Source: Chlorokybus atmophyticus (lineage: Eukaryota; Plantae; Mesostigma and Chlorokybus algae). Taken from it: a stretch of DNA of 64,000 bases. Below the pieces are notes generated by a model. That model saw only the letters and a program-made list of their open reading frames with translations, was not told the origin of the DNA and made no database searches. Shown in pieces: positions 21,060 to 46,158 of the stretch (the first letter of the stretch is position 1; each line of letters opens with the position of its first letter). The position numbers were made by a program, and so were the translations under genes. The stretch is taken from positions 186,001 through 250,000 of the forward strand of contig RHPI01001132.1 of assembly GCA_009103225.1 (NCBI GenBank), given 5' to 3'.

Positions 21060-21975
<916 letters not shown>

Positions 21976-22480
21976 ATCAAAATAATTGTGTCCGCGTTGA
22001 AACGTTTGCAAGCACTGTCGTTGCTGAGAAGCTTGCCAGGAACCCAATAACGCATACCAGCGAAACATTTCAAGCATTAATTAGTACTGCACACGAAACT
22101 CAGGGTAAGTGAAAGATTGCTTCTTGAATTTCAAGCAATGGTACATTGTGCGATCACCGTCGTTATTGCGACCATTTTGCTTTTCCCTCACGTAAAGAGA
22201 TGGACATAAGCGCATGGTGGTATCTTGCATATTGGACGGACAGTTTCGAAACAGCTTGTCCCAACCATAGCAACTGCAATCTCCGGTGATATAGCGCTTC
22301 TTGTAATACTCTTCATTGGGTTCTTCGGGACACGTGATCGATTTCACAGCGTCTGTAAGATGGCTTGGAAACCCTTTGCGGGTGAATAGGCAAAGTCTAT
22401 AGCTTAAAGGATTGCAAGTCTAGTCGCATCCGCAAGTTTTTTGCACCTACGATTCATAATCTTCAAGCAAGCATGCAATG

Positions 22481-22547
22481 AGGTAAAGTCCTGACGGGTA
22501 ATGGACCACAAATTACTTGTGGTCCATTACCCGTCAAGACTTTACCT
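22481..22547. repeat. Near-perfect inverted repeat (31-bp arms, 5-nt loop, 1 mismatch)
   Basis: AGGTAAAGTCCTGACGGGTAATGGACCACAA-ATTAC-TTGTGGTCCATTACCCGTCAAGACTTTACCT, read directly. Confidence 0.95.
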
Positions 22548-25158
22548 GACAATAAACGCAGGAACATCGATAGTGATCGTTTCCTCAAGCGCATGAAGTT
22601 CGTGAAAGCATCCCACATCTCCTTGTTTTAAGTATGTGTCAGCCACGACCAGAGGTTTTCTTGACGGCGCGCTTGTCTTCCTGCCATATCGAAAAAATTC
22701 GCAGGACATGTTTGTCTTGAACTTTGGTGCTGGTGCTTCTCGACTTATGCTCTAAAGCGAGGATACAGCGGCTACATGGTGTATCCCGACAGCAACTCTA
22801 TTACCGGGCTTGGTATCTTTATCCATAAAATGACCACTGCCTTTACAAAGCTGGTAGGTGTCTGTGCGCTGCAAGTTAATGGACATCATCTCATAACATG
22901 GTACGCTCACTTTCGTGCTGTCTTTCTATGCAGAAACAACACAACTATGGGTTCAATCGCGATGCAGTGTAGCATTAACTGGGCTACCTGCAGACCAGCC
23001 TCCTCCTCGTCTTCACCCACAGATTACGTCTTTTGCCACCATTGTCAAAGAGACTGTGCGCGAGGTGTTCTTTGGCTTCAACCATAAAAATGCGCGACAT
23101 ATGCCAATGCTCAACCATTGGCTCAGCAAGGACGTCTCTATACTTGAAGCCGGGGGTGCAGAGAGGATTACCAGAGTCAAGCAGTGGGTTGGCAATTTAA
23201 TTAAGAACATTGTAGCTTGTAGGTTTTGCTTGAGTGTAATGCATGCATGTAGTGATGTTTTTTGATAATGCAGCTACATAACCTGCATGTGCTTGCAGTG
23301 GACGGCTACGTAGCAACTTGAGCAGATTCGAATTATGATGCAAAATCGGCAAAAGCTGCACAATGAGCTACGGACGGCCCCTCCCCTTGCTGTTGCTGCA
23401 GCGATGGATGAAGCTCCGAAGGAGTCTGCTATTGAGCACAAAGATGAAGGAGAATGCAGCCAGTAGAGTATAGAGGAGGAATGACGAGGAGGCTGCGGCA
23501 GTTGCCCAAAAAGCTAAGGAGGAATTGCACGAGAGGTTCAACCAGCTCAAGGACATTGTTGCAAATTTTACACGAAGATTAAGTAAGGACTGAGGGACTG
23601 ACGGGTGCCTGCGCCTGCTTGAGCCTGCCTGCCACTGCCTGAAATGTTACTTTTGGACTGTTGGGTTTGCCGTTGGCTTATGTGGACTGACGAAAAAGGC
23701 CGCGGGCCGAAAGTGGTTGTTATTGGCACCGACCGGCCAAGACTTGTCAACCAGTTACCCTTTGGTCGATGCGCACAGACGGCCGTTAGCTGGTAGTCAC
23801 GGACAGCTAAGAGCAATAGCTGGCAGTTTCCTTGCCGTTACACTGCTGTTAATTTGTGACCCTTATCGTTTGACAAAAGTTGGCAATTCTTGCCGTACGC
23901 CAACACTAACATGCCATGCAGCTTGTACAAACCTTGGACTGACTGTTTGGTCTTGCAACTATAAGCCCACAATATATACAACGTACCGGCAGTGGTGAGA
24001 GTATGTCCACTTGTAATAAAGCAGCCGACTTACGCATGAAACTACATATAACATTGAGTCTAGTTGTCGCACTCATGCGCAGCTTGTCAACCCGTGGTGC
24101 CTGCCTCAAAACTCCTCCTCAACCCCCTCCTCCTGTTCCTCCTTCGATAAGTCTTCTGCTCCAACATCGGAGTCATCATCATCTGCTGCCTCGCTCGCTG
24201 ACAATACAGCGGCTACTTTGTCCCTTCAGCTTGAATGTCAGCATTTCGCCGTGCACGCGCATGCGCTTAATGGTCGCTTTGAGAGTGACCACCTGCATGT
24301 GGTAATGCTGTAAGAGTGGCGTGCTGCCAGAGGACTAGCCCATCAGCGTACACATGCTTACCTCGTCTTCCGCTTTGTTACACTCCGCCAGGCAGACAGT
24401 CAGCCTGCCGCGCTGCCCTTAGTTCACTCTAACAAACATGGCAATTGGCAAGCATACTGCTTAATTGCCGCTGGAAACATTAAAATAGGTCATGGATTAC
24501 CCGTTCGTGGTACTCCGCAGCTTCCCTTTTGCGACTTGTGAGCTCCCACAAGTAGAAATAGGCTGTGCATTTGCGAGATTGGTCATGCTATTCATGTGCA
24601 TGACACTGAAGGCTGTGCATGAGGGTGTGCATGTGGTATTGACAGTGTATGTCATGTGCAAGATAGTTGAGGCTGTGCATGTGCAAGATAAAAGAACCCT
24701 AGCATGTGGCATTGACAGTGCATTGTAACCCACCTTGGTTATGCCAGTCTCGTTTAGTCCATTCAATCATGTCGCCATGGTCGCAGCTACTGGTGGGTCG
24801 GATGTTCTTAGAGGCAATATTGTGGTGTGCCTTTACCCACTCGGAAGGGGAACCCTTGTAAGATATCACCGAAGTCACTGTCGTCATTGGCTGTGCCCTT
24901 GGTAGGCATGGTGGGGATTGACACCAAGGACACCCCACCGGCACCTTGCCAGCCCTGTGCGAGCATGGGCTTCATCCCGGACCTCGACCACAACGCCCCT
25001 AACATTGCCGCCAACGATCCACCAAACGCCACATACCCTCGGCGTCCCTGCCAAGTAAGGGCATAGCTTGGCGGAGCCATCAATGGTGTTTTCATGCGCA
25101 GGGTTTGCCATTGCCAGCACTTGTCCATGGTGCGAACTGCCATTGCCACTATACAAAG

Positions 25159-25285
25159 GTACCATGTCAATGGTACCTTTTGGCAAAGGCATCTTTGTAC
25201 CATTATGACGGTTCAATCAAGATATCAATACAAACTCACCCCACCCTGGACGTGCAATGGCTTAATCGTACCATAGTAATGGTAC
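25159..25285. promoter_or_regulatory. GTACCAT motif cluster 1 (5 copies, both orientations) upstream of the Plavaka-like transposase
   Basis: Copies at 25159, 25170, 25197, 25268 and 25279. Regulatory role is inferred. Confidence 0.5.
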
Positions 25286-25370
25286 GACGGGCCAATGAAT
25301 GGTGGCCAAGTTTTCCGCCTCTGGCATGCAAGGGTAGCGGCGGCGGTGGCGGCGGCGGTGGCGGCTGTGT

Positions 25371-28300
25371 GTGTTGCTGGATATGATGATGCAGGTTACA
25401 TGGGCGACACCTGTGTCGACGTCAGTAGCGAGCTATGGAGTCCTTTGTCCGTATTGCCACATGCGCTTCGCCACACGCAACTCGGTCTACATGCACATTG
25501 TTAGCAGCAGGGTGTTCAAGCAAATCAAGCTGTATGGCGGCCAGCGTCCATTACAGTACGATGCGGGTCATGTTGAACCGGGAAGTTCGATCCCAGATGC
25601 GCACATGCTTGATGCTGAACGACCCCTCCAGGAGACACACGCACAGCAGCAACATAAGGAGGAGGAAGTGAACGAGGCTTTCAATGTGTGCGTGCCTGAG
25701 AAATCTGTGGCATGCCAACATGGAAGTGGAGGCGTCCCTTCGCACGTATCGGAATCCAGGTGGTATGGCTCGGAGCATGCTCTTGCAGTGGCATTTGTGC
25801 AATGCAACAACGGCCAAGGCCTGTCGGCCTCCAACATGGGCGGAACATCAAGCGCATCCAAAATGCACACTTCCTGACGGAAGAGCTCCAGTGGGAGACC
25901 GGTGTGCATGTGTGGCCAGCTACCTCCGGACTACAATTGCTTTCTCTCAGTCTCAGGTGTGTTCACGGTGTGCGGTGCATGTGCTTCAACCATCAGAGCC
26001 ATGTCACATATGCACATGCGAGTGTGCTGTCGTATTGTAACTACGTGACGGCTGATCTGCGCAAGCCTAGAGACCCTGCGGATCAGGACATCAGCGTCAC
26101 ATATATGCAGGCCAAGGTTTGTAAAATCAGTATTTAATGCAGTATCTAGTCTGAGGCCAGCATGCCTGTTAATGGTCGCAGCAGGTATGGTTTGCGCGGA
26201 TGTATGGCAATCCACATGCTGCTGATGGCTTCAATCTCTAGTATAATGGTGACGAGCACAGCTTTAGCCATCCTTCCACGGGCGATTGGTGGAAGGATGT
26301 GGAGGTGGATTTGAGCAGAGAGGTGGGGGAAGCGTCCTACTTGGCGCCTGCCCTTATGTACAGTGACAAGACCACGCTAGGTAGCGCGGGCAAGCGCTTT
26401 AGCTACCCTCTGGTGGCATCGCTTGCCAACTACAGCGGGGACATGTATGCTAGCAACATGGGGGTTGTTATGATAGCGCTTCTGCCGGTGGTTCACGCCC
26501 CCGCCCGGGCATCCAACCTGGGCGCAGGGCAAGGAATCGTTCTTAATTCAAAAACGTGAGGTTTTCAATGACGCTTTTAATGTAGTGTTAGGGGATGTGA
26601 AGCGGGCGAGCTGGGAAGGTCTGCAGCTCATTGACCCGAATGGCTTCGAGCGTCGTGTGTTTCCGCGCTTGCCAACTACATCAGCGACTTGCAGGTAGTG
26701 GGCATGCATGGTTGTAACCGGATGCAGCCTGTTGGCAAACAATGCATGAAGGATGTTGTCCGTGGAGCATCTGAGTTTATCGCGTTGCAGGAGACTGCCA
26801 CACTCGCACGCACTGAGTTGGGCAACCAAACACGACATCCTTGCGATGTTCGTTTCATCACCAAATCAGATCTGTTGGAGATGGATGAAGACCGATAATT
26901 GAGAACCGAGGCTTTCTATACATCAGCAATACGTCAGCTGCGGGCGGACCTGCATAGCGGTGTTAGGAATGCACGCCACATAGCCAAGGCTTTTAAAGAG
27001 CAGCACTCCATGCATGTCGAGGAGGTAATGGTCAATTACTAGCATTCGTGAGGACGAATGGCTTTCTGTGTAACCAGGCAATGTGGTTTGGCAGCAGAAT
27101 GCACTGTGAGGTTGGCGAGCGTCGCAGGTGCCGGGAGCTGACTGCTACTCTCATCTTGCCCCTGACGCAATGCGTGTGCTCGGATGCATGATTAACCACC
27201 AGCTTGCTGCTGTGTACGACGCTGCGAAGGAACGCATGCGTCCATCCACGAAACAGATTCTGCAGGCCAGGCACGTCTTTGGTGTTACTTTTGTGTTGAA
27301 CACAAAAGCCAATGACACGTGCTCACAAGCAGATGTGCACAGGCTGAATGCATGCAAGGCGACTCTACGGATTTCGCACTTCATGGCACCCATATGCACA
27401 GTGGATTTCTTTCTGTCCGACCACTTCTTTTAGGTGGTGGAGACAATGGCGGTGCTGCAGCGGCTGCCGGTCCTTGCAGACGGTTTGCTGCTTGACAGTG
27501 AGGGCAACGACTTCTTCACCATTGCTGCCGCATCGCTTGCCCAGTGGAACAAGAGGTTCAAGGCGCGTGAACACACAAGAGAGACCCTGACCACAGCTGA
27601 CGACGAGCTGACTGCCTTCAGATCAGCAGTGTTGCATCCGCTGCTGTCGTCATAATCTGCACAAAAGTTAGGTTGGAAGATCGAGAAGATGCATCAGCTC
27701 ACTCATTTTGGGCCGGCACTTGTCGGCACTTGTGGACACCCGAATTGGTTCAGCGCCAACCGCATAGAGCGGACGCACGCTCAAAGTATTAAACAGTGGG
27801 CACATGGTGGCAACAACTGGGACTACCATGCGCGTATCCTGAAGGCATGGAGCTGTGCGGAATATGTGAGAGAGGATGGCACGGTCGTGGATCCCAAGAT
27901 GCGCTCGATCATAGCGCAGACGCGGCAGCAGTGCTGTAATGTAATGGAGAAGATGGACAAGTTGCTACAGATGGATGTGCTGATAAAGAGGGAGTTCAGC
28001 CCGTACCGGAGTGGTTTTACGCGTAGCCGCCCAATCGCTCGGAAGACTCCATTCGCCGACAAGCTGCCTGCCACTCTGAACAGCTGGTTGAGGAGGGAAC
28101 AACTAGAGTTGGCCGACGGGTGGCGTGCTGTTCGCGTGGTGAACGGAGGTGCAGCGGTGTCATGACATCCGGAGTCAGCATGGTGCACGCAACTGGGATG
28201 TTCCATGGGCGGCCTTGGTTCTCTACACTTTAGTTGGAAGGTGATGAGGACGGTATAAACGTGACTGTGGTGGGCTCGGGCACTCCTTTTTTAAGCGCGT

Positions 28301-28558
28301 GGTGGGGTGGGGTGGTAGCGGCGGGCGCGTGTGGCAGGAGGTCGTGTTTGTCCGCTGGTACACGATGCTAGATGTGACGAGCGACACAAAGTGCATGGCT
28401 CTGGAATGGAAAAAGTGTCGAGGGGGGGGTCCACATTCGGTGTCGTGACTCTGGAGCAAGTAAAAGGCATTGTCCAGCTGTTCCCCATGCTTGATAAGGA
28501 GAGCACCCGTGTACAAGAGGGCAAGTATTGGGTGTACGTTTACTGCACTACCACGTAA
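25371..28558 (+). mobile_element. Plavaka-type transposase gene (intron-containing, disrupted)
   Basis: N-terminal C2H2-like finger CPYCHMRFATRNSVYMH. Core blocks LAPALMYSDKTTLG...YPLVASLAN...IALLP, HLAPDAMRVLG and LGWKIEKMHQLTH...GHPNWFSANRIERTHAQSIKQW. C-terminal VVTLEQVKGIVQLFP...YWV. Order and content match Plavaka transposases as I recall them. At least one in-frame stop (about 27653). Confidence 0.7.
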
Positions 28559-28760
28559 CACATGTACTTGTCACCTACTCTGCATTTGGAGCATATCAAT
28601 TGGTTAGGCATTGCTAATCGTATGCTAAGACTTTTGCATGTGGACGTGCACAATACTGGGCAGCTGTTACTGCACAACTGTTACCACAATCAAATATTAA
28701 ATGCAACATTCAACAATTAGTCAGCTGTGTGCCATTAAGCATCAATACAATGCACCACAC

Positions 28761-30450
28761 TCAAGCCTCATAGTTCCATGACACAGGAGGGTAGTCACAG
28801 CGCAAATCCCTTGTTTCAATCATGAGACACCCTATGCACTCCGCCATTGCGGGAGGAACTGCATTCGCTATGGTAACGGTTGAGGTCATCCATGGCACTC
28901 TCAGCGCTGCTTGCCATGCAGCAATGCCGCCCTTAGTGCTTGGAAGGCCATAGAGGTACATTTGCTGTGGCGCGCTTGATGTCACAATTGTCTTCTTCGC
29001 GCTAGCGGACAGGTGCGTCGATAGCAGTCCAACCGCCTTGCCTGCGTGCGAGCAGCGTGCTGGTGGGGTAGCTACCGCTGGTGTGTCTCAAACAGACAGT
29101 GTTGGAAGGTTGATAGGCCAAACATCGTGCCACAAAGAGACAGATTGGGTCTGAATGAGGAAGCTGCTCCTGGCACATTCTCAATCACAACTTGACCCGG
29201 CTTGCAAGCAGCAGCTGTCGGACGAGCGGTATCATATCCTGGTGTCTCTAGGATGTGCCATGTGCCGCCCGTCAAGGTGCTGAGATAGCACCTGAATAGG
29301 CCTGGCATGGTGGACTGGCCCATATAAGCTCGTACTCGCTCGGCTCTTCTGCACTCAGGGTGCATACATCGCGGTGTACACATAAAGGGCAGCGGGTACT
29401 CAAAGGAGGGACTTATGCTATCCATTCCGGTCACGTCAAAGCCTGCGTGATATTGACCGACACTGGCACCGCCACCACCACCGCCGCAAAATAGGTTGAG
29501 TGCCCTTGATCTGCGTGTGCGTTCAAGCTTGTTGTCGAATGGCGTGTATGTGGTCAAGCCTGGCCGTGGTGCTGGCCAGGGACTAACAATGATGCCGTCC
29601 GGGCTTACTTTGCGATTGACATTCTCCCCTCCGGCGCGCAAAACATGGTGTGCCCCGTCAACTGATGTGTACGCGAATACGTTGTGCCCTTTGAAGTTGA
29701 TAGTTTGTGGTCGATCATCGTCATTGAATACTATACGGTGCTGCCCTGCAAAGCCATTTTTCATTGCACCATGCATATATGATGCGTCCTCAATCTCGCA
29801 CGCTAAGAAGCGATGCTGACCTGACGCTTGCTTGAATGATTCCACAACGCCCGCATACCATTCCCCATCCAGCGGCCAATGCAGTGCGCTGTATAACGGT
29901 CGATGGTCTGCCTCCTCTACAGCGGCCAGGGGGTGGAACTGCCCACGCCCAAACCGTGAAAGACTGCTCTGAATGCGACAACAGCTTCAACTTGCATAAA
30001 ATAAGCATACGCCAAACATAACATGCAGTGATACGTCGCTGTTCACTCTGTCGCATTACCTCCACACCATCCACCATATGTCCACTAACCACATGTCCCG
30101 ATGTTGTCCATGTGAAGAAGCGCATGGGTTCCCCTCGCCACTCGAAGCATGAGCGCGAGCACGCTTCGCACACGCACTGCACGCTTCGCACACGCACTGC
30201 ACGCAATGGAAAAACTCGGGTTCCTTGCACGCCACTTTGCCAAAGCGGCAGCCAAACACGTCGACATTGTGTGTGGTGTGATGCCAGCAAGCAGCAGTAA
30301 AACCGTGGCACACTGTCTGCACTCGCTGGCATTCGGTTAAGTGTGCTCGCATTTGCTACCTACAGCCATTGGCACATATGTACGCATTGCATTGTGGGCA
30401 CACCAAGCATGGTCTCGTAGGTGAGGGGGATTCAACTGCTGCCGCCGAGA
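28761..30450 (-). pseudogene. Zn-finger + Tudor + phage-type C5 DNA-cytosine methyltransferase fusion gene (disrupted)
   Basis: Tudor HWPLDGEWYAGVVESFKQASG|QHRIVFNDDD after splicing a 75-nt GT-AG intron (29820-29746). Motif I LNLFCGGGGGGASVGQYHAGFDVTGMD; motif IV IWASPPCQAYS (SPPCQ at 29316-29302, shifted frame); HQDMIPLVRQLLLAS; motif VI VIENVPGA; LCGTMFGL...QHCLFE; motif X-like PWMT...IANAVPPAMAECIG. Two frameshifts and stops in the MTase part. Confidence 0.85.
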
Positions 30451-30589
30451 TCATGCAAAATATGAATCGGCACGGTCGCCCACAAACTGAGTGAGACTTT
30501 AGGGTATGGGCATCAATTTAGGGTTGCCAGCTTACGAACCATATGAGTCACACTTCAAGAAGCACGACTGTACCACGGACGGTATTACA

Positions 30590-30643
30590 GTACCATGCAT
30601 GGTACTACATCAGCATAAATGGTACTCCATCCATTAATGGTAC
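30590..30643. promoter_or_regulatory. GTACCAT motif cluster 2 (4 copies) upstream of the Tudor-MTase gene
   Basis: Copies at 30590, 30599, 30619 and 30637, plus a variant GTACCAC at 30570. Confidence 0.5.
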
Positions 30644-30950
30644 TACAGTACAAGGATACTCGCATACTACCACGATCGTAGAGTAATACAGTGCTGTCAT
30701 TTCATGGAACCCAGAGCGCTGTCCGAGTTTGTTGCTGTCAACCACGCTCTGAACCTGCAAGGTATGCAAGCCATGCACTGACTCATGCGCCGGGCAGTCA
30801 GTATACACATGTACAGCCACTGCTTCTGACAACAGCAGATCTCGGGTGCACCATGCACCATGCTGCAACTATACATGTACCTACATGGTTCACAGGTGTT
30901 CAACACAAAACTACAATACATGCACAATTGTTATCAAGGCAGGGGCCAAA

Positions 30951-33900
30951 TCACCGCCGACACGTTGGCGTCTTGCAGCAGGCGTGGCGACCAAAATGGG
31001 TGAGGTTGCTTGCACATAGAACACGCTTGTAGCTCCATAGATTTATTTGCCACGTGCTTCTGCTGGTATTTGATGCAGACATGGCACATTCTTTTCTTGC
31101 AACAAGGCGTCTCCCCATCCGCTGAGGGGGGGTGGGGTCTTCAATGCGACAATTCAGCACGCATGGTGCACGCGGGTGTGCAAGCTGCCTCTGCCACCAA
31201 ACTCTGTTATCGCGTTGCAGGCGCAGCGACTCCCATCTGAATGGCGCAACATAGCGCTCCACTGCCTGCTCGATCACCCGACGCCCATCTGCCGCCATAC
31301 ACCACCTGCTGGTCTTAGTGGTCTCGTCCAGCATGCGTTCATTCAGGCCGTCGACATGGCTGTCGTCACTCGTGTAATCGCCCACATCGCCATCTTCTTC
31401 AAGCTTCCACAGAATCAGCTCGACATGCCGTATGACATATAGCCACTGCCAGCCAAAGCATGCCAAGTACAGCTCTTATGGTTTTACTTGCCACCGAGTA
31501 TGTTTGTTCAGGTAGTGGCACACATCTCGACCCGCATCAGTCGACATGTACATCTATTGCAGCAGTTCTGCTCCGCGGATAGCTCTTGCACATTGCCGGG
31601 TTGCTGCGGCAACAACACCACCATCATATCGAGGACGGCAAGGGGCAACAACGTATTATGGCAGGCAATGTCGTGTTTGGGTTTCAACCACGGCCAATCC
31701 CCAGAGGTCTGTTTAGACCGCACTCTTCGCGTTTGCTCCCACTTATTGCATACTTTCGTCGCTCACCTCGAGGCATGCCGCATGCGGTGATGCAGCGCGT
31801 CTTTGGCGTATTGTAGGGCGATCAAATCCTTTGCACAACGAGTCAGCCCCTCAAAGCGTCTGCGCGTCGGTGCTTTGATCTTATGCAGCTTGTGCCGCAC
31901 CGGCTGTCTCTCTGCACGATGCTGAGCAGCCACATGACACTGTAAACCAGCATGTGCATATTCAAGACACACAGTCAGCCCCAGTGAGGTTTCAAGGCGT
32001 TGTGCTTCTTCTAACTACATTGTAACGCTGCCTCACCTTTGCTTTTTGGTCCTGTCAGCATCCCTTGTGCTAACAACCTTTTTCTGTTTTTTTTGGTCAA
32101 CCTGCACATCCTTGCAGGCGCTCTCCGTGGCAATGTCACTTAGAGGAGGTAAGGCGTTATCTTCTTGCTCCACAGCTTTGCGCTTGTTGGTTGCCTCCCG
32201 TTCCTCCACGACCTCATGTTGCTTCGTGAGGTCGAGCATAAAGCCTTTGTCTTTTAGCGCAGCTTTCAAGACACCTCGATTAATCTCTTTACCAACAAGA
32301 CAGGCTGGGATCAATGTGGCAAGCTAAGAGGGAGAGGGCGAGCTATCGCTGCTTCGTGATGGAGATGCTCCCGGATGGTTAGAGTGCGGTGACAAGTGAG
32401 TCTCCGCAACAGGAATGGAGGGTGCTGACTTGTTATTGCGAGCATATGGCTATGGTTGAGGGAAGGCAGGATGTGCACAACAGTCGGCTACTTTTTGCCT
32501 AGCACACGAAGGCGAGGCCTGAGGCGTTGGCGCAGCACCAGGGTCGCAGCCAGTAGTAGCGAGGAATAGGCAACGCTGTTCCGCCACTCTCCGATCATGT
32601 CTGTTACCTCCGGTGGCACTTCTGGCATAGGCCACGACCATTGTTCGGTGCTTGCAGGCTTGAGGAGCAAAAAGTGTGCTTCTGGCTCATCGGAGCAGTG
32701 TTGCCCACCATCAGGACTAAGTTGAGGGCTTTCTTATTTCCAACCGAAACTGCGCTGACAGGCCGTGGCACCCACTCCCCATACTCGCGCTGAACGGTCA
32801 CGCAGCCAATTAACAACCCAGCCCAGCTTGTTGGCAAAAATGGTCATCTGCAGGTGCTCCACGTACACATCTTTTTTGCGCACGATCTGTCGCACCTTGG
32901 CCATGGCTATGTCAATGTTGCAATTGACATCAGCCAACATGCTCACAGGCAGTTTATCGTAATACTGCGCCATCTCTCCCGCGGCACCAGTGGCTCTGCA
33001 GAACTCTAAGATTCTGCTCACCACACCTGCATCGATAGCCTTGGCGGTGATTTTGCGGAGAGTGTCCCCCCTGCCGTCGTCATCCATGGTGTCCAGCATG
33101 GCCCAAAATCTGCTCGAGCTGGGGCACTTGTGATTATCTAGGACACTTTGCGCTATGGATGGCTTGGCGCGAAACACACAATAGTAGAAGCAATCACCAT
33201 CCGTTGGCGCATTGAAGTGGCCCCATGAGGCGAGCTGCCACCTAGCATGACTGATGGCCATATGCTGCGTTGCGGCCAGCTCCTCTGACGACTCACTGGC
33301 AGATGGTGACCCTTGCTGCATGCGCATACAGCACTCAATTGGTGTGTCCAACTGTCGACGGCAAGAGTCAAAGTGACTGATAAAGCACCTGAGCTTGGGG
33401 CAGACTGCCGGCTTCAACTTGCAACGGGTGGGGTAAGGTAGGTGCAGAAGCCACATCGGTTGTTGCATTGTGCTGTGGTCGCGCCGGTTGCGGCAAGAAG
33501 AATTGCTGCCCCGCAATCACCGGTGCTGCTCGTGGAGGAGACTGCAGTGCATGAAGGACTGGTGCCGCGCCAGGTGGATGCGCTCTGGCTGCTATGGGAG
33601 CAGGTGCGGCAAGTAAGACCACTTGTCCATGCAGCAAGGGGGCCTGTATATGGAACCCAGGATAAGATGGCTTATCATGTTGCAAAGGACGAATATAAGC
33701 TTATGCAGTGCCTGACGCATTGTTACCAAAGCACAAGCATAAAAGACAGCGACTTACTTCAATGGCCCGTGGGCTGCATGGAGCAGGGGAAGCCGTGGGG
33801 GCTGACAAGGTGGTATTGGGTGCACTCTCCCCGCCACTCTCAATCGCAGACTCGTCACGGAGCTCGTGAGCCATGGGCACAGGATGCGACACTGCCCCAT

Positions 33901-34959
33901 TGGACATTTCGGGATTCAACAAGCCAACATGCATGTAAACTGATGCCGCATTGCCGCTGCGCCCATCAACAAGTGGGATTGAAGGACCAGTTGATGGGAT
34001 TGAATCCAGGCTTGCTTAGGAGCTCCCACACGACCTAGTGCATTGTGGTGCTGTCAACCAATCACATGTGGGTTAGCTGCATGCTTGCGATACTGCAATT
34101 GCAATAGTCAGCTGCGTCACACCGACATCAGTTGGTTGCTTCGAATAGTCACCTGCAGCATTGCTGGTTGATGCGCAAATGATTGCATGCACTGCGTCAT
34201 TGCTGGTTGATGCAAAGCTGGTTGAATGCCGGACGAATGGCCACGCGCTCATGTGCGAAAACCCAGCCTACTTCATACGGCACGTGCGCGTGACTTCGTA
34301 CGCTCACGCACTACCTAGCATGCAAAGGTAGGCATGCATTGGAGGTGCATGCAGTCAACATGCACAGCGAGATTAGCAACAACACACCGCCGCCCAGCTC
34401 TGTCTGTCAAATCTGGCTTTTGCAATGTCGCCTTGACTGTGGGGTGGGTATGGGTAAATAGTGAAGGCTTGCAGCCACACTACATGTATTATATGGACGC
34501 GCAAGAAAAAACTTGCTCTTGCAAGGAAATGCATGTGACTGCTGAGCGTACCTCTGCAATTCTTTGTGCTTGTTCCCACAGTCGCAATTGGTCCCGCATG
34601 ATTCTGACAAGGGGCTCCAAGGATTGCAGCTCCTGATCCAATCGTCGTTGCAAAAAGCGAGCCACCCAGCAGCTCTCTGTGTAAAGATGGTTCTTAATGG
34701 CTTGCCTGCTGGTTTGTCCAATGTTGATGATGCATGTTGGACACCCCCATTGCTGACGCCTGCCATGATCCATGACGTGGCGCCCGGTAGTAGTTGGTTT
34801 TGCTTCTTGAACTTTTACGACCACAACTTCGCAAGATGTGCTACGTCGCCGCCGCCGCCGCCGCCTCCTACTCCTGGTCCTTCGCCTTTTAAACGAACCA
34901 AGGTCCACTATGCCTGACATTCGAGCCGTCATCGACTTGATGCCCTTGCGTGCCATCAT
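30951..34959 (-). pseudogene. Multi-exon cargo gene: C2HC zinc finger + OTU-like cysteine protease + unassigned C-terminal region (disrupted)
   Basis: WGCPTCIINIGQTSRQAIKNHLYTESC (ORF 34489-34959). OTU-like NAPTDGDCFYYCV...LRKITA...YVEHLQMTIFANKLGWVVNWL (ORF 32734-33516), with a candidate catalytic His in a shifted frame (LVLMVGN...KHTF). Whether all pieces form one gene is inferred. Confidence 0.55.
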
Positions 34960-35032
34960 CCAGCCATCAATGAAGCTTTTTGGGTGAGTGCACGCTAACT
35001 CCCACTAGGGCTGGTCGAGCAATGCCTCCGTC

Positions 35033-35180
35033 GTACCATGGTTGATACGACAGAGCCATAGTATGCCAATGGCTGGGTTGGACGAGAGATGCCTCTATCG
35101 TACCATTATTGTTACGCCCAAGCCATTGTTACCCTTGGTTGTACGAAGCAAGGATGGTACGAATGCATAAGTCGTACCAT
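35033..35180. promoter_or_regulatory. GTACCAT motif cluster 3 (4 copies) between two divergent cargo genes
   Basis: Copies at 35033, 35100, 35154 and 35174, between ATG 34959 (-) and ORF start 35361 (+). Confidence 0.5.
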
Positions 35181-36868
35181 CAACCATAGGAGAAGGACGC
35201 ACTACAAGTGCGACTCTATTGCGGGACACTAGACATTAAAACCGCCTCATTTTCGTTTTCGCGCCTCGTACATTTGGGCGGGCCACCTGGCGGCGGCAGC
35301 GTTGGATGCGACAGCGTCACCATCAGCTAAGCAATCGGCACCCGACTATTAGTTAGAGAGATGCCTCGTGTTCCATCTGCAGGTGCACCTTGTCGTGGTG
35401 GTCGGCGCCCAAAGTCCACATTGCCCCCAGTGTTCAACCAGGCAACCGTCGCCAACCAGCAACAGCCACTCTTCGCCAACCAATCGCAGCAAGACTTCGT
35501 GCTAACGTCGAGCCCATCACAACAACTCCACCTGACACCGCAGTCGCAAGGGCAAGCTAAATGCATGCGTTCTTGATGCACTATGCACATTGCTTCTTGC
35601 TCAACTTTTAACTTTAATGCTTGCTTCTTTCATGACTAGCACAGTGACTCACTGCATGTGTGTTGGATACACTGTGCACGTTATTCTTCTTGCTTAACTG
35701 TGAGGGTTGCATCTTTCATGGATGGCAGCACGAGTCACGTGGTTGTGCTTGCAGAAGGTCAATTGAAACCCCCAACCCAAACGCATTTGGCCGTGACGTA
35801 GCAACCTCAGGCCGTCATTAACCCTCCAGCAAGCAAGTGGAAGATTGGCAACGAGGTAAGCATTGTATGACATTGTGACACTGTGACACTGTGTGTAATG
35901 GACTGTTCTTCTGTGGACAGCATTTGCGAGATGCCGTCGTTGAAATCATAAACGGCCACTAGGTAGAGAGCTACATTTATCTCAAGGAGGACACTGTTCG
36001 TAACGTCATGTGCCAGGTGCTATGAATGCTTTAAGACCTCAAAGCACCGTGACCAACCTGCCCGTAACAGGTAGTTGGCTTTGACTATGACGACGAGGCT
36101 AATGCGGCCAAGTTCGATGAGGTGTACTAGACGTCCAAGGAGTGCCCCTTCCACAGGGGTGTCGCCTTGAAGAAAGCTGCGCAGGTCCGGTCTGAGAACG
36201 TCACCAAGATCAAGCATGTCCTTAAAAAGGAGTACAAGTGGACACTGTTTAACAGCAACAAGCGCAAGTGAGTTGGGTCCCTCACCACCATGTCTGGTCT
36301 GCAACACTGCCTTCTTACTCAGCCTCCATACACACGTACGCATCTCGCCTATTGCCACCAATTCGATCAAGCACATCAACGCCCTAATGGACCCCAAGAC
36401 CCCAAAAGCGCAGATGCGCAACGCGCTCCATAATAAGTCATCGGCAGTATTATAGCCTAATGCAGGCTCTACTTGAACTATCTATATCGTGACTAATGCC
36501 TAGTTAGTATGACTTTCGCAGACAAGTTATGGCGGAAATTTGAGGTGACCGACAATGCAGACCCGGAGCGGAGGAGATACATCCATGAATGGGGCAATCC
36601 CATAATCTGGCAAATGATCGTGCAATGCTGGTCTTACGCCGTCACTACACCTGGTCGCCGGCAGCTGACAGTCAACCACCTCGCATACCTGTTGCTTACG
36701 GTGAGCACTCTGAACTCAATCACGAGCAATTTAGGAATGCTGTAGCCCCAAACTACAGGCTTGCAGACGCGCTACAGTGAATAGTGGCTTTCAATGCCAC
36801 TAAGACATGCCTGTAAACTACGCAGGTGGAGCGCATCTTAAAGGGCAAGGATGCAGACCCTCTCCTAC

Positions 36869-37178
36869 TGTAAAAAGGGGGGTGCTTCCGCTCCCTTTAA
36901 TCCCCTACCCCAACACCACCACCACAGCCACATCGCCGCCGCTGCTGGCAGCGCCGCGAAAGATCCCCTGGCTATGGCGGTCGCCGCGTTAGCAGCGCCG
37001 CCATGCGGCCGATATGGACTTGAGATAAGAGTCTCAAGTCGATATCGGTGTCACATAACACCTTATGAGGGCCTAAAAAGGCCCTCATACAACTCTAATG
37101 GCTGTGTTTATGCCGTTGGGACCCTTATTTCTCATTAAATAAGGGCGGGGAACCGCATAGCGGCAGCACTCCCTTACA
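36869..37178 (-). repeat. 3' LTR of chromovirus
   Basis: Homologous to 43366-43666; TG...CA termini; adjacent to the PPT. Confidence 0.93.
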
Positions 37179-37249
37179 TTCCCCCCCACTTGGGTTTTAA
37201 TGTCCTTATTGAGGGGTTAGCAAGGCCCCACCGTGAGCATTGAAAACCT

Positions 37250-38500
37250 TGGTGAGTAAAGAACCAGGGCCAAAGCGGTAAAGATGTCTGCCAGCACCCA
37301 TTTACCGTCCGCGTGCGGACAAATCACGCCAGTACGCCCGAAGAATCTCCTAGCAGTTGATAAGATTCCTTTTGAATCCCCGCGTGCTGTGTTCAACACC
37401 ATACCCTTTTCGTTTCATCAAAGTAAGTCGGCGCGCGTCCGCGTCGGGGCTTACGGTGACTTATGATTGCTTCCACCTCGTACTCGAAAGTATCATCGCC
37501 ATCCACTGCGACAGGGGGTGGAGGAGGTTGAACACGACCGTCTGAATGGTATGGTTTTAATCACATGAAACACGTCATGTATATGTATGGATTGTGGTAA
37601 CTCCAAACGATACGCGTGCCGACCCGATTAACCACTTTGAAGGGGCCTATCCAGCGAGGGAAAATATTTCGGGTACCCACTCCCTTGATGATTATGTTTT
37701 TAGTGCTTAAGAGCACCGATTTACCCACATTATAATCGGCATGCCTACGATGCTTATCAGCTTGGGCTTTTTGTCTGTCTTGCGCTGCGCGCAGACAGCT
37801 CTTTGCCAACGCTAACCTGTCTTGCATGGCCGCAGCCATCTCGCGCGCTGCAGGCACGCGAGTCAAGTCGTTAGCCGGCAACTTAATACTTACTGCTCGC
37901 AGGACTTTGTGGATGCACTTCGTAATTTAAGAAAAACGGAGTTTCCTGCACACTCTCTTGCCATGCATTGTTGATCGCGAACTCAGCCATTAAAAGATAA
38001 TTATCCCAATGAGACTGGTTCGGACTCACATCCTGCCGAATGGTTTCCTCAATCACTTGGTTGGCGCGTGGAGTCTGACCATTAGTCTGAGGATGATAAG
38101 CGGTACTCATGTGCTGCTGTATCTGCAGGAAGTTGCATAGCGACTTCCAAAACTGGGCCACAAACCTCGGGTCACGGTCAGTCACAATGTTGCGAGGCAA
38201 GCCATGCAACTTGAACACTGACGCGACAAACACCATTGATAGATCACAGGAGCTTGTCTCCGTACGGCAAGAAATAATGTGAACCATTTTAAACAAACGA
38301 TCCACAAATATTGCAACCGCAGTGTGACCCAACGCTGTCTCAGGGAGCTCAGTGATAAGGTCCATACTCGCACTTTCTCGCTTACTGTTAGGAACTAGCA
38401 ACGGCCGCAGTAGCCCAGCGAGCTTTTTACGTAACGGTTTGTCACGTTGACATTTGTCACACGTGTTCACATACCGCTTCACATCAGCAGGCAACAATGG
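37250..38500 (-). pseudogene. Integrase plus chromodomain of chromovirus pol
   Basis: CDKCQRDK, SMDLITELP, IVTDRDPRF, STAYHPQTNGQ, RWIGPFKV. Chromodomain EYEVEAIISHR...KGYGVEHST...NLINC*EILRAYW with frameshifts. Confidence 0.9.
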
Positions 38501-38699
38501 CCATCAATACAACTGTTGCGCTGCCTTAGTGGTCTTGCGACTACCAAAGCGCCCAGCGTAAGGTGGATCGTGTACATACCGCTATGCATTTTACACGCAG
38601 TTCAGCATGGTCAGGTATCACCAAACTTTTGCTCATGTATCACAGATTGTCACGTTTGTCAAACTTTTGTAAGTTGTATGCAATAGAAAACCACGGGTC

Positions 38700-40700
38700 C
38701 AAAGTGTACCCCTGTACAACAATTTGCACAAACTCATCATCAAGAGACAATGTGTTGCGTGTCGCGAGTTATTGCGCGCGCATCACCGCCAGTAATGACG
38801 GACAGCGACTCAAAGGGTCAGCAACATTGTTTTTGCCCGGCCGATACACCCAATTAAAGGTGAACCTGGACAAAAACTCATTCCAGAGCGCTTGCCGTCT
38901 CGACAAGTTTTGCTGTGTTGAGAAATACACCAACGGGTTGTGATCAGTCACAACAGTGAACTAAACACCCTTTAAGTAACATCTCCATGTCTCAAGAGCA
39001 TGAACTATATCCAATAGTTCTTGCTCTGTCGTAGTGTAGTTCACCTCTGCAGAAATGAACTTCCTACTCTCATAAGCACAAGGTCTGCCAGCTTGCAACA
39101 GTACCGCACCACACCCAAGTGTTGATGCGTCACTGACCACTATGAAGTGTTTGTCCCAATTTGGCAGTGCTAACACCGGCGCCGATGTTAAAGCCAACTT
39201 CACCTTTTGCATAGCAGCTTCTTGTGCTGTTGTTCAAGTGAACGGGGCATCTTTACGCAACAGTTTGGTCAAAGGCATGACAACTGTCGAGTACCCCATC
39301 ATGAACTTGCGAAGTAGTTTGCCAACCTTGGAAATGACCTTAGTTGATGGACATTCTGAGGTTTGGGCCACTCTTTTACAACCTGTACTTTGCGAGGGTT
39401 AGGCTTGATACTCGCACCACTCACAATGTGACCAAGAAAGGGCAACTCCGTTTTACAAAAATTACGCTTGGTGAGATTTGCCAACAAACGATGCTTGCGC
39501 AATCTTGCAAACACCGCTTCCAAGTGTTGCCTATGTTCTTCCTGTGTTCTACTGAAGACAATGATGTCATCCAAGTAACTCATGACATGTTGACCAAGCA
39601 TATCGCCGAAAATTTTACTCACTTCCTTCTGAAACACAGCGAGTGCATTAGTCAATCCCAAAGGTAACATTTTGTATTGACAATGGCCCGTAGGTGTCCT
39701 GAACGCTGTCTTATAGACATCCGAAGGATGAATCCGGATATGATAATAGCCGCTTGTCAAGTCTAGCGTGCTTAAGTACGCATTCCCTGACAACTTGTCA
39801 AAAACATCATCAATCCTTGGGAACGGGTATCTGTTCTTTATCGTGATCGTGTTTAGAGCACAGTAATCCACACGCATGTGCAACTTCCCATTCTTTTTCC
39901 ATAACCAACAATATGGGTGCGCTAAAGGGTGAGGAACTTGGTTCAATCAATCCCTTTTTCAATTACTCTTTTATCTGTGTTTCCATTTCCCCCCTCTCAC
40001 GAGGGCTCAACTTATATATAGGCCAAAATGGAGGCTCACTATCAGGAATTAAAGGTATTGTGTGTCCGACACCTCGATCACTGATCCTGGCAGGGGGCAA
40101 GCCCGGCAACTCATATCAGAACACATTCTGAAATTTCTTAATAATGTCCGCCACACCTTCTGTATTGCCAGGCACCACATCATCACTCGACGTTAAGTGC
40201 ATTAGGAAAGCAGGGGTGTTTTTACGTAACGCACGCTTCACTTGAAGCGCCGTAAGTAACGCAGGGTCTGTTTGCTTGTATTTCAAGCTATGCAACCCCT
40301 GCACAGACAAAGTGATGCGCTTACGCCCCTTCTTTACTGTGCACAACCGTGCAGCAGTATCTAATGTCATAGACACTTGATCTTGCCATTCTTGGCCAAA
40401 TACCACATCAACACCAGCTATGTCAATGGGTACTACGATGAAAGTTAAATTGGCTTGATAACTACCAGTCTTAACTTTCAATTTGATTTCATCTTTTACT
40501 AATAACGCACATCCAGCACCAGCAGTTGAGAAGGCTGAGGGTTGACACGCTATATCTATTGCGCATAACCCATTTATCTTCGACGAAGTTATGCGTTGCC
40601 CCGGTGTCAACCAAGAACGAGCTAGTAATACCCTGTGCCGTGCCTGTGAAGGTCCACAATAAAGGTACTACTCGCCCTTGAAAGGTAGCCAAGATTCCAT
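38700..40700 (-). pseudogene. Protease / reverse transcriptase / RNase H of chromovirus pol
   Basis: LVDTGATHNFV (protease), RYPFPRIDD, LDLTSGYYHI, YLDDIIVFS (RT), SDASTLGCGAVLLQ, TDHNPL (RNase H). Multiple frameshifts. Confidence 0.92.
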
Positions 40701-41085
40701 GATTGATGCGTGGGTGAATAAATACTGCTGTCAACCGCACTGTTCCCGTCTCACGCTTTGTGAATTGTTTCAACACGGTTCTTTCCCGAGTATGCTTCAG
40801 CCATGGTCCATGGTTCTTCGGCACAATGACAGCCGCACTCAGTGTCGTGCGTTTATTTTGTATCTTACACAATGTGCGCAAAACTTCTGATAGCATGTTA
40901 AACTCTACATGCACTAGCACACAAGCATTGGCATCCACTTTTTCACTATCAAAAAGTCACAGCTTATCATGTGCTTGCCATGCATGTGTCATTACATGCA
41001 CACGAGACAATTCATCAAACCAGTTTGCTGTATGCAACACTAGCAACTGGCCACCAGATGAAGGTACATCAGTCACGACGTAATC

Positions 41086-42484
41086 CTATTCAACCTTCTT
41101 GGCCTTGCCCTTCCCCTTGGTTGGGCAGTTCTTCGCAATGTGACCTGGCTGATGGCACACGTAGCAGGCGCGTGCTGCAATAGGCGTAGCACCACTCGCA
41201 GGTGCATATGAGGTCTTGGCCTTTTTTGCCGCATGCACACTTGGTGGAGGGAACCGCTTCCCCCCTCCCCCAAGCGTGGGTTCCCGCGAACCTCGCAACC
41301 TCTGCAAGGTTGCGAGGTCCGCGGGAACCCACGCTTGCCCCGTCGACGTGTTGTACTGCAACTGGTTGCGCAAGCGCGCATCAAAGCCGCGCTTGTACAA
41401 GTCAAACTGCTCAGCCTTGTCCATGGGCATGAGCCAACTGTTGACACGGCCAACAAGTGCCTGAAACTCTTGCAAGTACACTGAAGCCGCCCGACCATTC
41501 TGTTGCAGCTTGGTAAGCTTGTTGCGAGCAGCAGTAGCCGAGTCCATGCCATCATAGCGCCACAAAAAACTGAAACAATGCCTCCATGGTCTTGGAAGCT
41601 CCATCCTCTATTTGACGTGCATACTTGGCCAAAGCGTCAAGTGGCATGAACAACTCAGCAACAGATGTATGCTCACTAATTGGTCGCTGAAGTGCAGGTA
41701 AGTAGCGCTTCACATTCACCACCCAATCATGAATGTTCACAGCCCCATTGGGCTTGAACTTCTCGGGCTTGTTCAGCGCTGTGACGGGTAGGCCAACTGA
41801 TGTCCCTGCTACAGTTGTGGTAGCCCCGGCCACCTGCTGACGTAATGCTACCAACTCGGACTGCATAGCATCGAGGCGTGCAGTCAAGCGCTCTTCTTGA
41901 GCTGACTTCTCCTCCAGCTCAGGCCCTAAGTACCAGAAGAGGTCCTTGCAACGCTTCTGAGTTTCCACCGTAAATAAGGTGAGAGCCTCGAACGCCATCC
42001 TCTGGCCTGGATACGGGCCTGGTTTGTCATAGGTGGCCATAAGAGCGGCCACTGCTGGATCTGTGCGCATGAGTTGCGGTACATTACGTGTCAACTCGTG
42101 CTCGATTATGCGAATCACCATCTCCTTGCTTGCGCGCGGGAGTGCCGCGAAGGCCGTATTATATGCATTACGGACTTGCTGCGCCCACTCATTCCACACG
42201 TCCTTGCGAAGCTGGGGGTGTGCGGCAAGAAGAGCTTCACGCTCTGATACGTACTTTGCTATGGCCGCCCCAATGATGCTCTGAGCGACCATATGTTGTT
42301 TGTCAAGAGAGGACTTCTTTGAGAAAGCTTCACCACTCTTGTACTTGGCTTCTTCCTCTTCACTGTTATTGTAACTACCACTCGTTTCCAAGTGCTTCAC
42401 TTCCTCATCACTTGATGGCTCATAGGATGAACCCTCAGAAACGATACATCCCGCCTTCCTCTCCTTGGCAAGACATCTGCCCAA
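41086..42484 (-). pseudogene. gag of chromovirus (with CCHC zinc knuckle) and upstream ORF segment
   Basis: KPEKFKP...WV, LTKLQQNGRAASVYLQEFQALV, CYVCHQPGHIAKNC. Split into two ORFs (41552-42484 and 41086-41604). Confidence 0.85.
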
Positions 42485-43365
42485 GGAGACAAGCCGTCAA
42501 TAAGTTTCAAGTGCACGAGCACACGAGTTGAGCACTCTGAAAGTGTTGAAATTTGTTGTTTCTTTCTCGTTGATTTCAAGGTGCTATACTTGGGCTAAAC
42601 AGCACGTAAAATGACTGCCCAACACCTCTCAACAGGACGCTCGCTTGTAAACCAGCCGTACGCGAATCCACGCGACGGTCATCAAGCTATTATAACTTAA
42701 AGTTTTTACTTCGTACAACCCTGCTCAACTCACAATTGCAAATGACACAAAAGGTGCCAAACTCTCGTTGAATTAGCCCTACAGGCTGATATCAACAAGT
42801 TGTGAGTCGAGGGTTTGATATCGACCGCCCAAATCGAATCTGGCGACCCTACCGCAGTGAATGGCGGCCAAAACAGCCCAAGTTGGCGTTAGACTGCTTT
42901 CTTGGGGTGGGAGATGTGTAAACAACTACACCCTCCCTTTACACCACCACGAATCCACGTGGTGGCAGCCCCAACCACGAGCACACTCACAAGTAATAAT
43001 GTGATAATTACAAGTGATGTGCTGGGATGCAATACTTGAGGTGAGGCTGCCTGAGTGGCCGCCTCCCCTTTACACTAATAAGCTAGGCTAGGCTAGGCAA
43101 GCTAGGCTAGGCTAAGCAAGCAAGGCAAGGCAAGGCTAGGCTACACCAACAGCAGCACTATACAATTGTACAACTATACAACAACAACAACTAGCTAACA
43201 ACTACCACTACCCAACCTAGTGGGTAGCGGCTGCTAGCTGCCGCCGCTGCCGCCGCTGTCAAGCCGCCGGCCTGACATCGGCACTGAGCAGCGTCGATTG
43301 CCGCCTCTGCGCCCCGTTGTTGCCGCCGCCCCCCCAGGCCCCCAATCCCTCGCTCCGATATTAAA

Positions 43366-43666
43366 TGTAAGATGGGGGGTGCTACTGCCCCCCTTAATCC
43401 CCTACCCCAACACCACCACCACAGCCACGTCGCCGCCGTCGCTGGCAGCCAGGGGATCGAAAGATCCCCTGGCTATGGCGGTCGCTGCGTTAGCAGCGCC
43501 GCCATGCGGCCGATATCGACTCAAGTCGATATCGGTGTCACATAACATAACTCCTTATGATGATCTAGGCCCTCATACGACTCTAATGGCTGTGTTTATC
43601 CCGTTGGGACCCCTATTTCTCATTAAATAAGGGCGGGGAACCGCATAGCGGTAGTGCTCCGTTACA
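43366..43666 (-). repeat. 5' LTR of chromovirus
   Basis: Homologous to 36869-37178 with substitutions and indels; followed by TSD CCTAC. Confidence 0.93.
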
Positions 43667-43768: not shown

Positions 43769-44351
43769 TGTAACGGGAAGGTACATTATATTACCACAAA
43801 TCGACCATAAAAGCACCAAGTCTTTTGTGGTCGAGCGGGCTGTGACATTGGTCAGCGGAGCTTGAGACCCGGGGTCGATTCCTGCATTGCACACGAATTC
43901 CGCGGTCGTTGTTTCTCGATCCAATAACATCGTCAATGGTCACTTTATAAGTGCCATTATGGATGGGTCGCGACTTGCCTAATGGCAGTCGCGCCGAATT
44001 GACCAGTTCAGTCGGCGCGGCAGGCCGCGACCTGCCTGTCGCGGCGACGCGACCTGTGGGGCCGGCAGCGGCGCGATGTGCGCGCGTTGACCGGTATGGG
44101 CCTAAATTGGTCGGTCCTTGGGTGGTGGGGCCGGTGACTGACCCTAAATCAGACCCCTGGGATGATTCCCCAGCTGATGGGCGCCAGCCGAGGACGTTTG
44201 CGTTCTTAAGTGGGGGGAATGTAACGGAAAGGTGCATTAAATTACCACAAATCGACCATAAAAGCACCAAGTCTTTTGTGGTCTAGTGGTGGTAATTTAA
44301 TGTACCTTCCCGTTACATTCCAAGTCTTTTGTGGTCGGGTGGGCTGTGACA
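43769..44351 (+). mobile_element. TRIM-like non-autonomous LTR element
   Basis: LTR1 43769-43847 (TGTAAC...TGTGACA); LTR2 44220-44351. TSD GCAGC at 43764-43768 and 44352-44356. PBS-like TGGTCAGCGGAGC follows LTR1; PPT AAGTGGGGGGAA precedes LTR2. No coding capacity recognised. Confidence 0.9.
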
Positions 44352-45056: not shown

Positions 45057-45310
45057 CAGGTGCCTGTTACATAGGCTAAGTCACTTATATAAGACTGATG
45101 TGTAATTTGCAGGTGTCTGTTAATTAATTATAGTCACTTGTTAAGGCCTGATAAGTAACTAACAGGTGCCTGTTGGTTAGGCATACTCACTTGTCAAGGC
45201 CTGATAAGTCACTAATAGGTGCCTGTTAATTACGCATAGTCAATTGCTAAGGCGCGATAAGTAACTAACAGGTGCCTGTTAATTGCGCATAGTCAACTGT
45301 TAAAGACTGA
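45057..45310. repeat. Degenerate tandem minisatellite, ~53-bp unit, about 5 copies
   Basis: Recurrent AGGTGCCTGTT....ATAGTCACTTGTyAAGGCCTGATAAGTAACTAAC. No unique spacers. Confidence 0.85.
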
Positions 45311-45464
45311 GTTGTAACGGAAAGGGCCTGATAGTAACGGAAATTGTACTCAGGTCCTTGTCTCGAGATAATTGGAGAACTGAGCCACGACAGTCTACAT
45401 TAATATTCAGGTGCAGGGCTGTTGCCAATAGTTAGTTGGCCGGCAGGAGAAACATTTTGCGATA

Positions 45465-46158
<694 letters not shown>

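Follow-up and report, generated by a model that had tools for sequence, protein, structure and literature searches.

Transposon-borne DNA methyltransferases are already known. Giant Plavaka elements of red algae carry PAG2, a DNA methylase-SET gene (10.1101/2025.02.11.637652), and Plavaka elements are present across algae (PMC13519894). In fungi, Plavaka and other DNA transposons carry TET/JBP enzymes (PMC12730594). The algal mobile elements SymbioDIRS-Dnmt3, SymbioLINE-Dnmt and KnitGypsy-Dnmt3 have their own C5 enzymes; for such retrotransposon DNMTs self-methylation has been proposed, and de novo CG activity has been shown for one family (PMC5890265). Mariner-1_OLpv, of the Organic Lake phycodnavirus, is a DNA transposon with a C5 methylase (PMC3627910), and giant-virus DNMTs, whose target is unknown, enter host genomes (PMC11244446). 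Fusions of chromatin readers with transposon domains are common, mostly with PHD and chromo domains (10.1101/2021.11.30.470311). The known transposon enzymes are without a targeting domain with which ideas about their purpose could be tested, and a reader-writer fusion makes that question testable.

Here we examine a stretch of 64,000 nucleotides from Chlorokybus atmophyticus (contig RHPI01001132.1, positions 186,001 to 250,000), called the window below, in which a Tudor reader is fused to a C5 writer beside a Plavaka transposase. The window looks alga-like by features of its own, namely genes rich in introns, starts that resemble transit peptides and the type of Tudor domain. We consider it likely, with a probability of roughly 0.6, that this gene is the cargo of a Plavaka element, and that the protein of intact copies would dock on histone H3 in a methylated form (likely H3K4me1) and deposit 5-methylcytosine nearby.

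The comparison with the systems above is instructive on both sides. Like PAG2, the locus combines a large Plavaka element, accessory genes and a methylase fused to a chromatin domain; PAG2, however, joins a putative N6-adenine methylase (PF01555) to a SET writer, whereas the window joins a C5-cytosine enzyme to a Tudor reader. The fungal TET/JBP enzymes belong to the same transposon group and also act on cytosine methylation, but they remove or oxidise 5mC, which the window enzyme is predicted to write. The retrotransposon DNMTs are mostly DNMT3-derived and intronless, with no histone reader described in the accessible part of the report (PMC5890265), whereas the window holds a DNA transposon. 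Mariner-1_OLpv shares the DNA transposon, the C5 methylase and the tie to an algal virus, but it lies within the virus and forms a pair with an endonuclease in the manner of a restriction system, and neither a reader nor introns are reported for it (PMC3627910). With the Plavaka methylase-SET gene (10.1101/2025.02.11.637652) and the viral Mariner C5 enzyme (PMC3627910) already known, the original prediction, made from the letters of the window, overrated its novelty. What sets the window apart from these systems is the Tudor reader fused to a C5 writer beside a Plavaka transposase.

No second fusion of this kind came out of the searches. It was absent from all 4622 candidate proteins of 533-2000 aa (a weak search), and none of the 17 proteins found with the Tudor profile among 1.84 billion representatives contains a methyltransferase. 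The fusion pattern matched 137 metagenome and 2 viral stretches, none of them confirmed, and a six-frame search of 240 loci gave no Tudor or MBD at E<0.005. A literature search, with subscription surveys (e.g. Iyer and Aravind) outside its scope, found no DNA transposon that carries a C5 enzyme fused to a Tudor domain.

The fusion gene and its copies in other organisms

The gene lies on the minus strand, from the start ATG at 30454 to the TGA at 28763-28761, and codes for a Cys/His-rich region, followed by a Tudor domain and then a compact C5-cytosine methyltransferase. Its parts are the following.

30060..30454, minus strand: predicted first exon, Cys/His-rich (VCPQC...RAHLTEC...C..HC), likely zinc-binding, from reading of the sequence
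30059-29969, minus strand: predicted intron of 91 nt (GAG/GTAATG...TTCAG), phase 0 at both ends, connecting the Cys-rich and Tudor exons in frame
29821..29968, minus strand: exon with a linker and the first half of the Tudor domain (HWPLDGEWYAGVVESFKQAS), from reading and a PDB profile match
29746..29820, minus strand: predicted 75-nt GT-AG intron within the Tudor domain (GT...TTTGCAG), in frame and stopless
29516..29745, minus strand: remaining half of the Tudor domain (QHRIVFNDDD), with a linker, in the frame of motif I, from reading and a PDB profile match
28761..29515, minus strand: compact C5-cytosine methyltransferase with motifs I, IV, VI, VIII and X and a C-terminal DYPP, from motifs and homologue matches

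The Cys-rich region has no assignment in Pfam, PDB or Atlas; it may resemble TRAF-type fingers. The original prediction had read it as a zinc finger WCPQC...RAHLTEC, and the motif is present, but the first Cys pair reads VCPQC. The same prediction placed the 75-nt GT-AG segment correctly at 29820-29746 and overlooked the probable second intron, within which the relatives described below have a small indel or a loose end (30048-30052). In intact copies both predicted introns would be spliced; the stopless 75-nt one could also be read through.

As predicted, the gene is split over three frames. The methyltransferase motifs are I (LNLFCGGGGGG), IV (WASPPCQ), VI (IENV), LCGTMFGL and an X-like WMT...NAVPPAMAECIG, found in three minus-strand frames. 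The window copy is dead. The first exon has a premature TAG at 30358-30356 and an exact 20-bp duplication (period 20, 2.3 copies, 100%) at 30159-30204, and the methyltransferase part is broken by frameshifts at 29379, 29188 and 29081 and by stops at 29274 and 29250; motif VIII is decayed. The original prediction had called this copy inactive and put the duplication at 30161-30200, but had missed the three stops and the three frameshifts.

It is worth stressing that the Tudor domain and motif I stand in one stop-free frame (29986-29381), so that the link between them is independent of any repair.

We now consider the copies elsewhere. Runs X1 and X3, from two organisms and two studies, contain the stretch, with 83 substitutions on 1741 bases (about 5%) at the gene; runs X5 and X6 gave no contigs matching it. 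The four frame-breaking indels (29081, 29188, 29379 and 30159) are absent from X1 and X3. Where the window copy has the stops 30358 and 29274 they read Gln, and both arginines of motif VIII are present in them. At 7 of the 12 enzyme positions listed, from 40 of the 84 substitution rows, X1 and X3 have the residue that is most frequent among the 10 closest proteins; the window has it at none of the 12. The X1 and X3 copies, which keep the order of Tudor and methyltransferase without the frameshifts, are probably, but not certainly, intact copies of the kind that the original prediction had proposed to look for.

These observations bear on the alternative that a fragment of a Tudor gene and a fragment of a methyltransferase gene lie next to each other by chance. 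It would account for the lack of a fused protein in every library searched, but it has to explain both the single stop-free frame from Tudor to motif I and the same order kept without frameshifts in two studies. The original prediction had named this rival itself, and we now regard it as extremely improbable. That the fusion is a real gene we hold with high confidence.

In the window copy, C-to-T and G-to-A changes relative to X1 are strongly overrepresented (418 vs 138), and this copy decayed mainly through C-to-T changes. The bias of the C-to-T changes to CG is only mild (14 of the 42 listed, with 20% expected, p 0.027). This pattern, seen over 23600-36868, may point to methylation or deamination irrespective of sequence context.

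The methyltransferase and its kinship

The raw 304-aa ORF matched 224 of 2622 candidate proteins at E<=0.01 (best 1e-11). Of the 120 matches listed, most are 200-250 aa long, and nearly all that bear a label are given as PF00145 or 'DNA (cytosine-5)-methyltransferase'. Against phage records, 178 of 50,697 matched, and the 25 listed are all annotated as DNA methyltransferases or methylases, with 36-39% identity. These matches support the prediction of a compact phage-type C5 methyltransferase. Pfam did not detect the methyltransferase in the raw ORF, the best PF00145 match being a 32-aa piece at E 0.11.

Of 52 columns with at least 90% conservation among 105 relatives, 43 are retained in the window enzyme, read with an X in place of every break. 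The catalytic Cys (SPPCQ) and ENV are retained, and FCGGG and NAVPP, of the SAM-binding motifs I and X, are present. Motifs IV (PC) and VI (ENV) of the window and the motif VIII Arg pair of X1/X3 follow each other in the order of C5 methyltransferases. The family core is about 220 residues long (YPF, SPPCQ, ENV.GA, LCGTMFGL, RHRLFE, A[IV]PPA), and the target-recognition region of the window enzyme measures only about 45 residues. Five proteins of the family (P0124, P0125, P0130, P0134 and P0147) consist of two tandem or permuted compact units each.

Membership in the eukaryotic DNMT1/MET1, DNMT2 or DNMT3/DRM families was considered and rejected. No sequence match to any of these came up in the PDB. 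The predicted structure of the close relative P0122 (pLDDT 91), modelled in place of the window protein, matched C5 enzymes only among the hits listed, at E 2e-8 to 2e-6, and MET1, M.HaeIII, DNMT1, DNMT3 and M.HhaI came out about equal, with 10-18% identity; the eukaryotic enzymes are thus structurally no closer than M.HaeIII and M.HhaI. The window enzyme is a C5 fold of a separate compact family and not a eukaryotic DNMT, and the claim that it is no MET1 or DRM is supported. The trees discussed next were built without eukaryotic DNMTs.

In a careful tree of 38 rows, the window, a group of MBD-containing proteins and a giant-virus group form one branch with support 85/93; the support of the clade is moderate, and the branch of the window is long (1.33). 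A quick tree of 94 rows gives the same grouping with support 89; five tandem double-domain proteins and five cluster duplicates were removed, and of the remaining 226 proteins 90 went into it. The three groups share an insertion after motif IV. In addition, the window has I.P..R..H...W..H..[LM]IP in common with the giant-virus and MBD offshoots, and a C-terminal YPP with the MBD group. One member of the giant-virus group is a gene on L081, a contig of a giant-virus MAG.

Two placements among actinophage enzymes were tried and rejected: with the three named actinophage enzymes and P0193 (AU p 0.0003), and with an 8-row actinophage clade (AU p 0.010). A tree that excludes the window from the giant-virus/MBD branch has p 0.088 and is not rejected. 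The original prediction of a phage/actinobacterial type therefore holds for the wider family, with its 36-39% identity to phage enzymes, but not for the actinophage clade; its idea of a prokaryote- or virus-derived enzyme is in keeping with the giant-virus link, but not with an actinobacterial phage as the nearest kin. With the giant-virus and MBD-containing clade as kin, a virus of eukaryotes becomes the likelier intermediate. The trees are unrooted; the presumed direction leads from phage-type ancestors to the window by way of a eukaryotic virus.

The core motifs of the window enzyme are also those of the compact orphan C5 enzymes of phages, such as Kimona gp80, and of the offshoots of these. 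Compared with the compact phage, giant-virus and MBD enzymes, the window enzyme is without an MBD insert but has the N-terminal Tudor and introns. In the Logan proteins P0012, P0025, P0121, P0122 and P0123 an MBD is inserted in the target-recognition region of a compact C5 methyltransferase (PF01429 E 2e-6 and 3e-8 in two proteins, with PDB MBD matches; degenerate in P0123), and a longer insert occupies this position in six sister proteins, one of which comes from L081. From their sequences, such proteins could possibly be 5mC readers and writers in one chain. No description of MBD-containing C5 methyltransferases was found in the literature search, and searches for their loci returned compact phage-like genes instead.

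Does the protein of intact copies still methylate DNA? The window enzyme has Asn in motif I where 105 of 105 relatives have Asp, and Met in motif X where 103 of 105 have Tyr, and the main X3 copy retains two extra glycines in motif I. These departures from invariant positions, together with the long branch, fit a fusion that is genuine cargo and has ceased to be a writer, in which the methyltransferase fold would bind DNA and the Tudor domain would anchor the element (or its transposase) in gene-rich chromatin or protect it from host silencing. VANDAL proteins are known to shield their elements from host silencing. The catalytic Cys and ENV kept even in the dead window copy, and both motif VIII arginines in X1/X3, speak against such a loss, and we consider this alternative unlikely. 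We judge it reasonably likely that intact copies encode an active enzyme.

The Tudor domain

Pfam did not detect a Tudor domain in the raw ORF, and an Atlas search with it returned nothing. The unspliced profile has 7DE9 as its best PDB match, at E 0.047; with the columns of the 75-nt intron removed, 7DE9 is the sole PDB match, at E 8.6e-5. This structure is the Tudor domain of RDM15 bound to H3K4me1, in which W616, Y623 and Y641 form the cage, D643 and D645 bind the monomethyl-lysine, and E647 and Q654 bind H3R2 (PMC8184781). In the window Tudor after splicing, W616, Y623, D643 and D645 are matched with exact spacing, and Y641 is replaced by Phe. Out of 46 in-frame GT-AG choices, a single one restores the RDM15 register W-x6-Y-x17-aromatic-x-D-x-D, and this is 29820-29746. 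The spliced form also scores higher than the unspliced one (56 vs 37+11 bits), on a set of 23 Tudor domains that were retrieved by the window's own profile and so favour the spliced form.

Of the 17 library proteins found with the profile, 10 have Tudor-family Pfam matches and one has Tudor-like repeats, while the other six are unrelated repeat proteins, that is, noise. Together with the RDM15 match and the cage in register, these results support a Tudor of the RDM15/PDS5/MSH6 type, in agreement with the plant PDS5/MSH6-type domain originally proposed.

The two Tudor domains are not equivalent, however. RDM15/PDS5C is without an enzyme domain and acts through Pol V (PMC8184781), whereas the window Tudor is fused to a methyltransferase. 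While the cage and both acidic methyl-lysine contacts are in register, the H3R2 pocket is not conserved, with Pro for E647 and Gly for Q654 in a gap-free register. Because of the proline at E647, the mark bound may differ from H3K4me1, and we give H3K4me1 itself an even chance of being the mark that is read.

The probable Plavaka element and its proposed function

The surroundings of the gene contain the following features.

25338..28165, plus strand: decayed Plavaka transposase gene (C2H2 finger, YSDKT, ISDLQ, KMHQLTHF, IERTH), PF18759 at E 1.2e-10 and E 0.018
30570..30643, no strand: GTACCAT cluster just upstream of the fusion gene, from the site count in the window
32737..33516, minus strand: second probable cargo ORF, with a PTDGDCF motif; weak PDB match (E 0.27) of a DGDCFF stretch, to two chains of viral polymerases
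23600..36868, no strand: presumed left part of the element, one block common to X1 and X3; left end approximate, resuming after 43666
36869..43666, minus strand: Ty3/gypsy LTR retrotransposon inserted in the element and not part of its cargo; 84% identity between its LTRs, with a CCTAC duplication flanking it

The transposase gene is convergent with the methyltransferase gene, and its D, D, E and H-x3-H can be read by eye in the decayed copy, in which the C(2)C of Plavaka transposases is hard to make out. One X1 contig covers 27593-29883 and 29875-30049, and thereby links the 3' part of the transposase physically to the enzyme and the Tudor domain. The ORF at 32737-33516 has no Pfam match; its PTDGDCF motif may be OTU-protease-like.

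The cover by X1 and X3 runs from about 23.5 kb to 36867, with none at 22000-23001. Its break at 36867 results from the Ty3 insertion in the window copy; a loose end of X3 at this point resembles the sequence from 43667 onward. The Ty3/gypsy element is old and lies within a gene of the Plavaka block, and it contains a 31-bp hairpin at 41271-41337. X3 has 113 contigs of mixed identity over the 1741 bases of the gene, a contig depth that is not a copy number; their mixed identity suggests a repeat family.

Some further repeats were seen around the block. A small MITE-like element at 43769-44321 has inverted ends of 45-49 bp and a nested near-palindrome (44216-44321). An array at 45057-45310 repeats a 53-bp unit 4.8 times and may represent the subterminal repeats of this transposon or of one next to it; a Cys-rich ORF follows at 45432-45797. 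On the other side, 21900-23590 is AT-richer, with Cys-rich ORF fragments and a hairpin with perfect arms of 31 bp (22481-22547), and is not covered by X1/X3; it is probably another mobile element interrupted by the Plavaka block. A poly-T of about 550 nt (21277-21828) and a poly-C of 139 nt (45832-45970) are probably assembly artefacts.

Neither the terminal inverted repeats of Plavaka elements (TGT..ACA or CATCA..TGATG) nor a target duplication of 2-3 bp were found between 23.2-24.3 kb and 43.7-48.3 kb, the copy being old and nested and its right end not located. The lack of termini in the regions searched, and a giant-virus protein among the closest enzymes, would be consistent with a block that is not one transposon but derives from an endogenous giant virus, or else comprises a host gene beside a transposase, and is common to the relatives by descent. 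Introns and a plant-type Tudor speak against this, no viral core gene appears among the block ORFs scanned, and the X1/X3 cover ends near 23.5 kb, with many variant contigs in X3. This explanation is quite improbable in our view. The placement of the gene inside a DNA transposon, as first predicted, has the linked transposase on its side but not the termini, and we infer with good confidence that the fusion gene is cargo of a Plavaka-type transposon.

As to sequence motifs, the window contains 19 GTACCAT sites, and 13 of them fall into three clusters (25159-25285, 30570-30643 and 35033-35180), each about 150 bp or less, directly upstream of an element gene and with several inverted pairs; the cluster at 25159-25285 precedes the transposase. 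By their positions they could possibly be a shared promoter or binding motif. Binding by an element-encoded protein at these three places would also suit the non-catalytic role discussed above. Word depletion within the element revealed no distinct motif that would name the methylation target.

For the favoured reading, the following sequence of events can be proposed. An enzyme of phage-type ancestry would have arrived via a virus of eukaryotes and acquired a host Tudor exon. The transcript of an intact element would be spliced to give a zinc-finger-Tudor-methyltransferase protein, whose Tudor domain would dock on an H3 methyl-lysine and tether the enzyme to transcribed, H3K4me1-marked chromatin, where it would methylate cytosines in a short motif nearby. 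In this way active or newly inserted copies of the element would be marked, and would either resemble host chromatin or be damped, with host gene bodies methylated as bystanders. Self-marking, as proposed for the retrotransposon DNMTs (PMC5890265), is the likeliest job of the protein in our view, although we put it at somewhat short of an even chance.

Another option is that the enzyme is active but directed against the host, methylating H3K4me1-marked gene bodies or silencing genes and so weakening host defence, and not the element itself. A histone reader indeed confers no specificity for the element's own DNA, and H3K4me1 marks gene bodies in land plants; according to the same report, however, gene-body H3K4me1 is absent in Chlamydomonas (10.1101/2024.10.15.618488). 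Wide methylation of host genes should moreover be costly. We regard this host-directed role as improbable.

The widest form of the proposal is that a transposon has built histone-guided DNA methylation from a minimal virus-derived C5 enzyme and a captured H3K4me1 reader, converging on DNMT3-PWWP, in an undescribed branch of compact enzymes that took up readers repeatedly (Tudor, MBD), and that active copies could write host gene-body methylation. Taken as a whole this is doubtful. If true, it would represent a route by which new reader-writer DNA methylases arise from viral enzymes, and it might account for gene-body methylation in some algae. With a core of only about 250 residues, the branch could also yield compact tools for chromatin-guided methylation.
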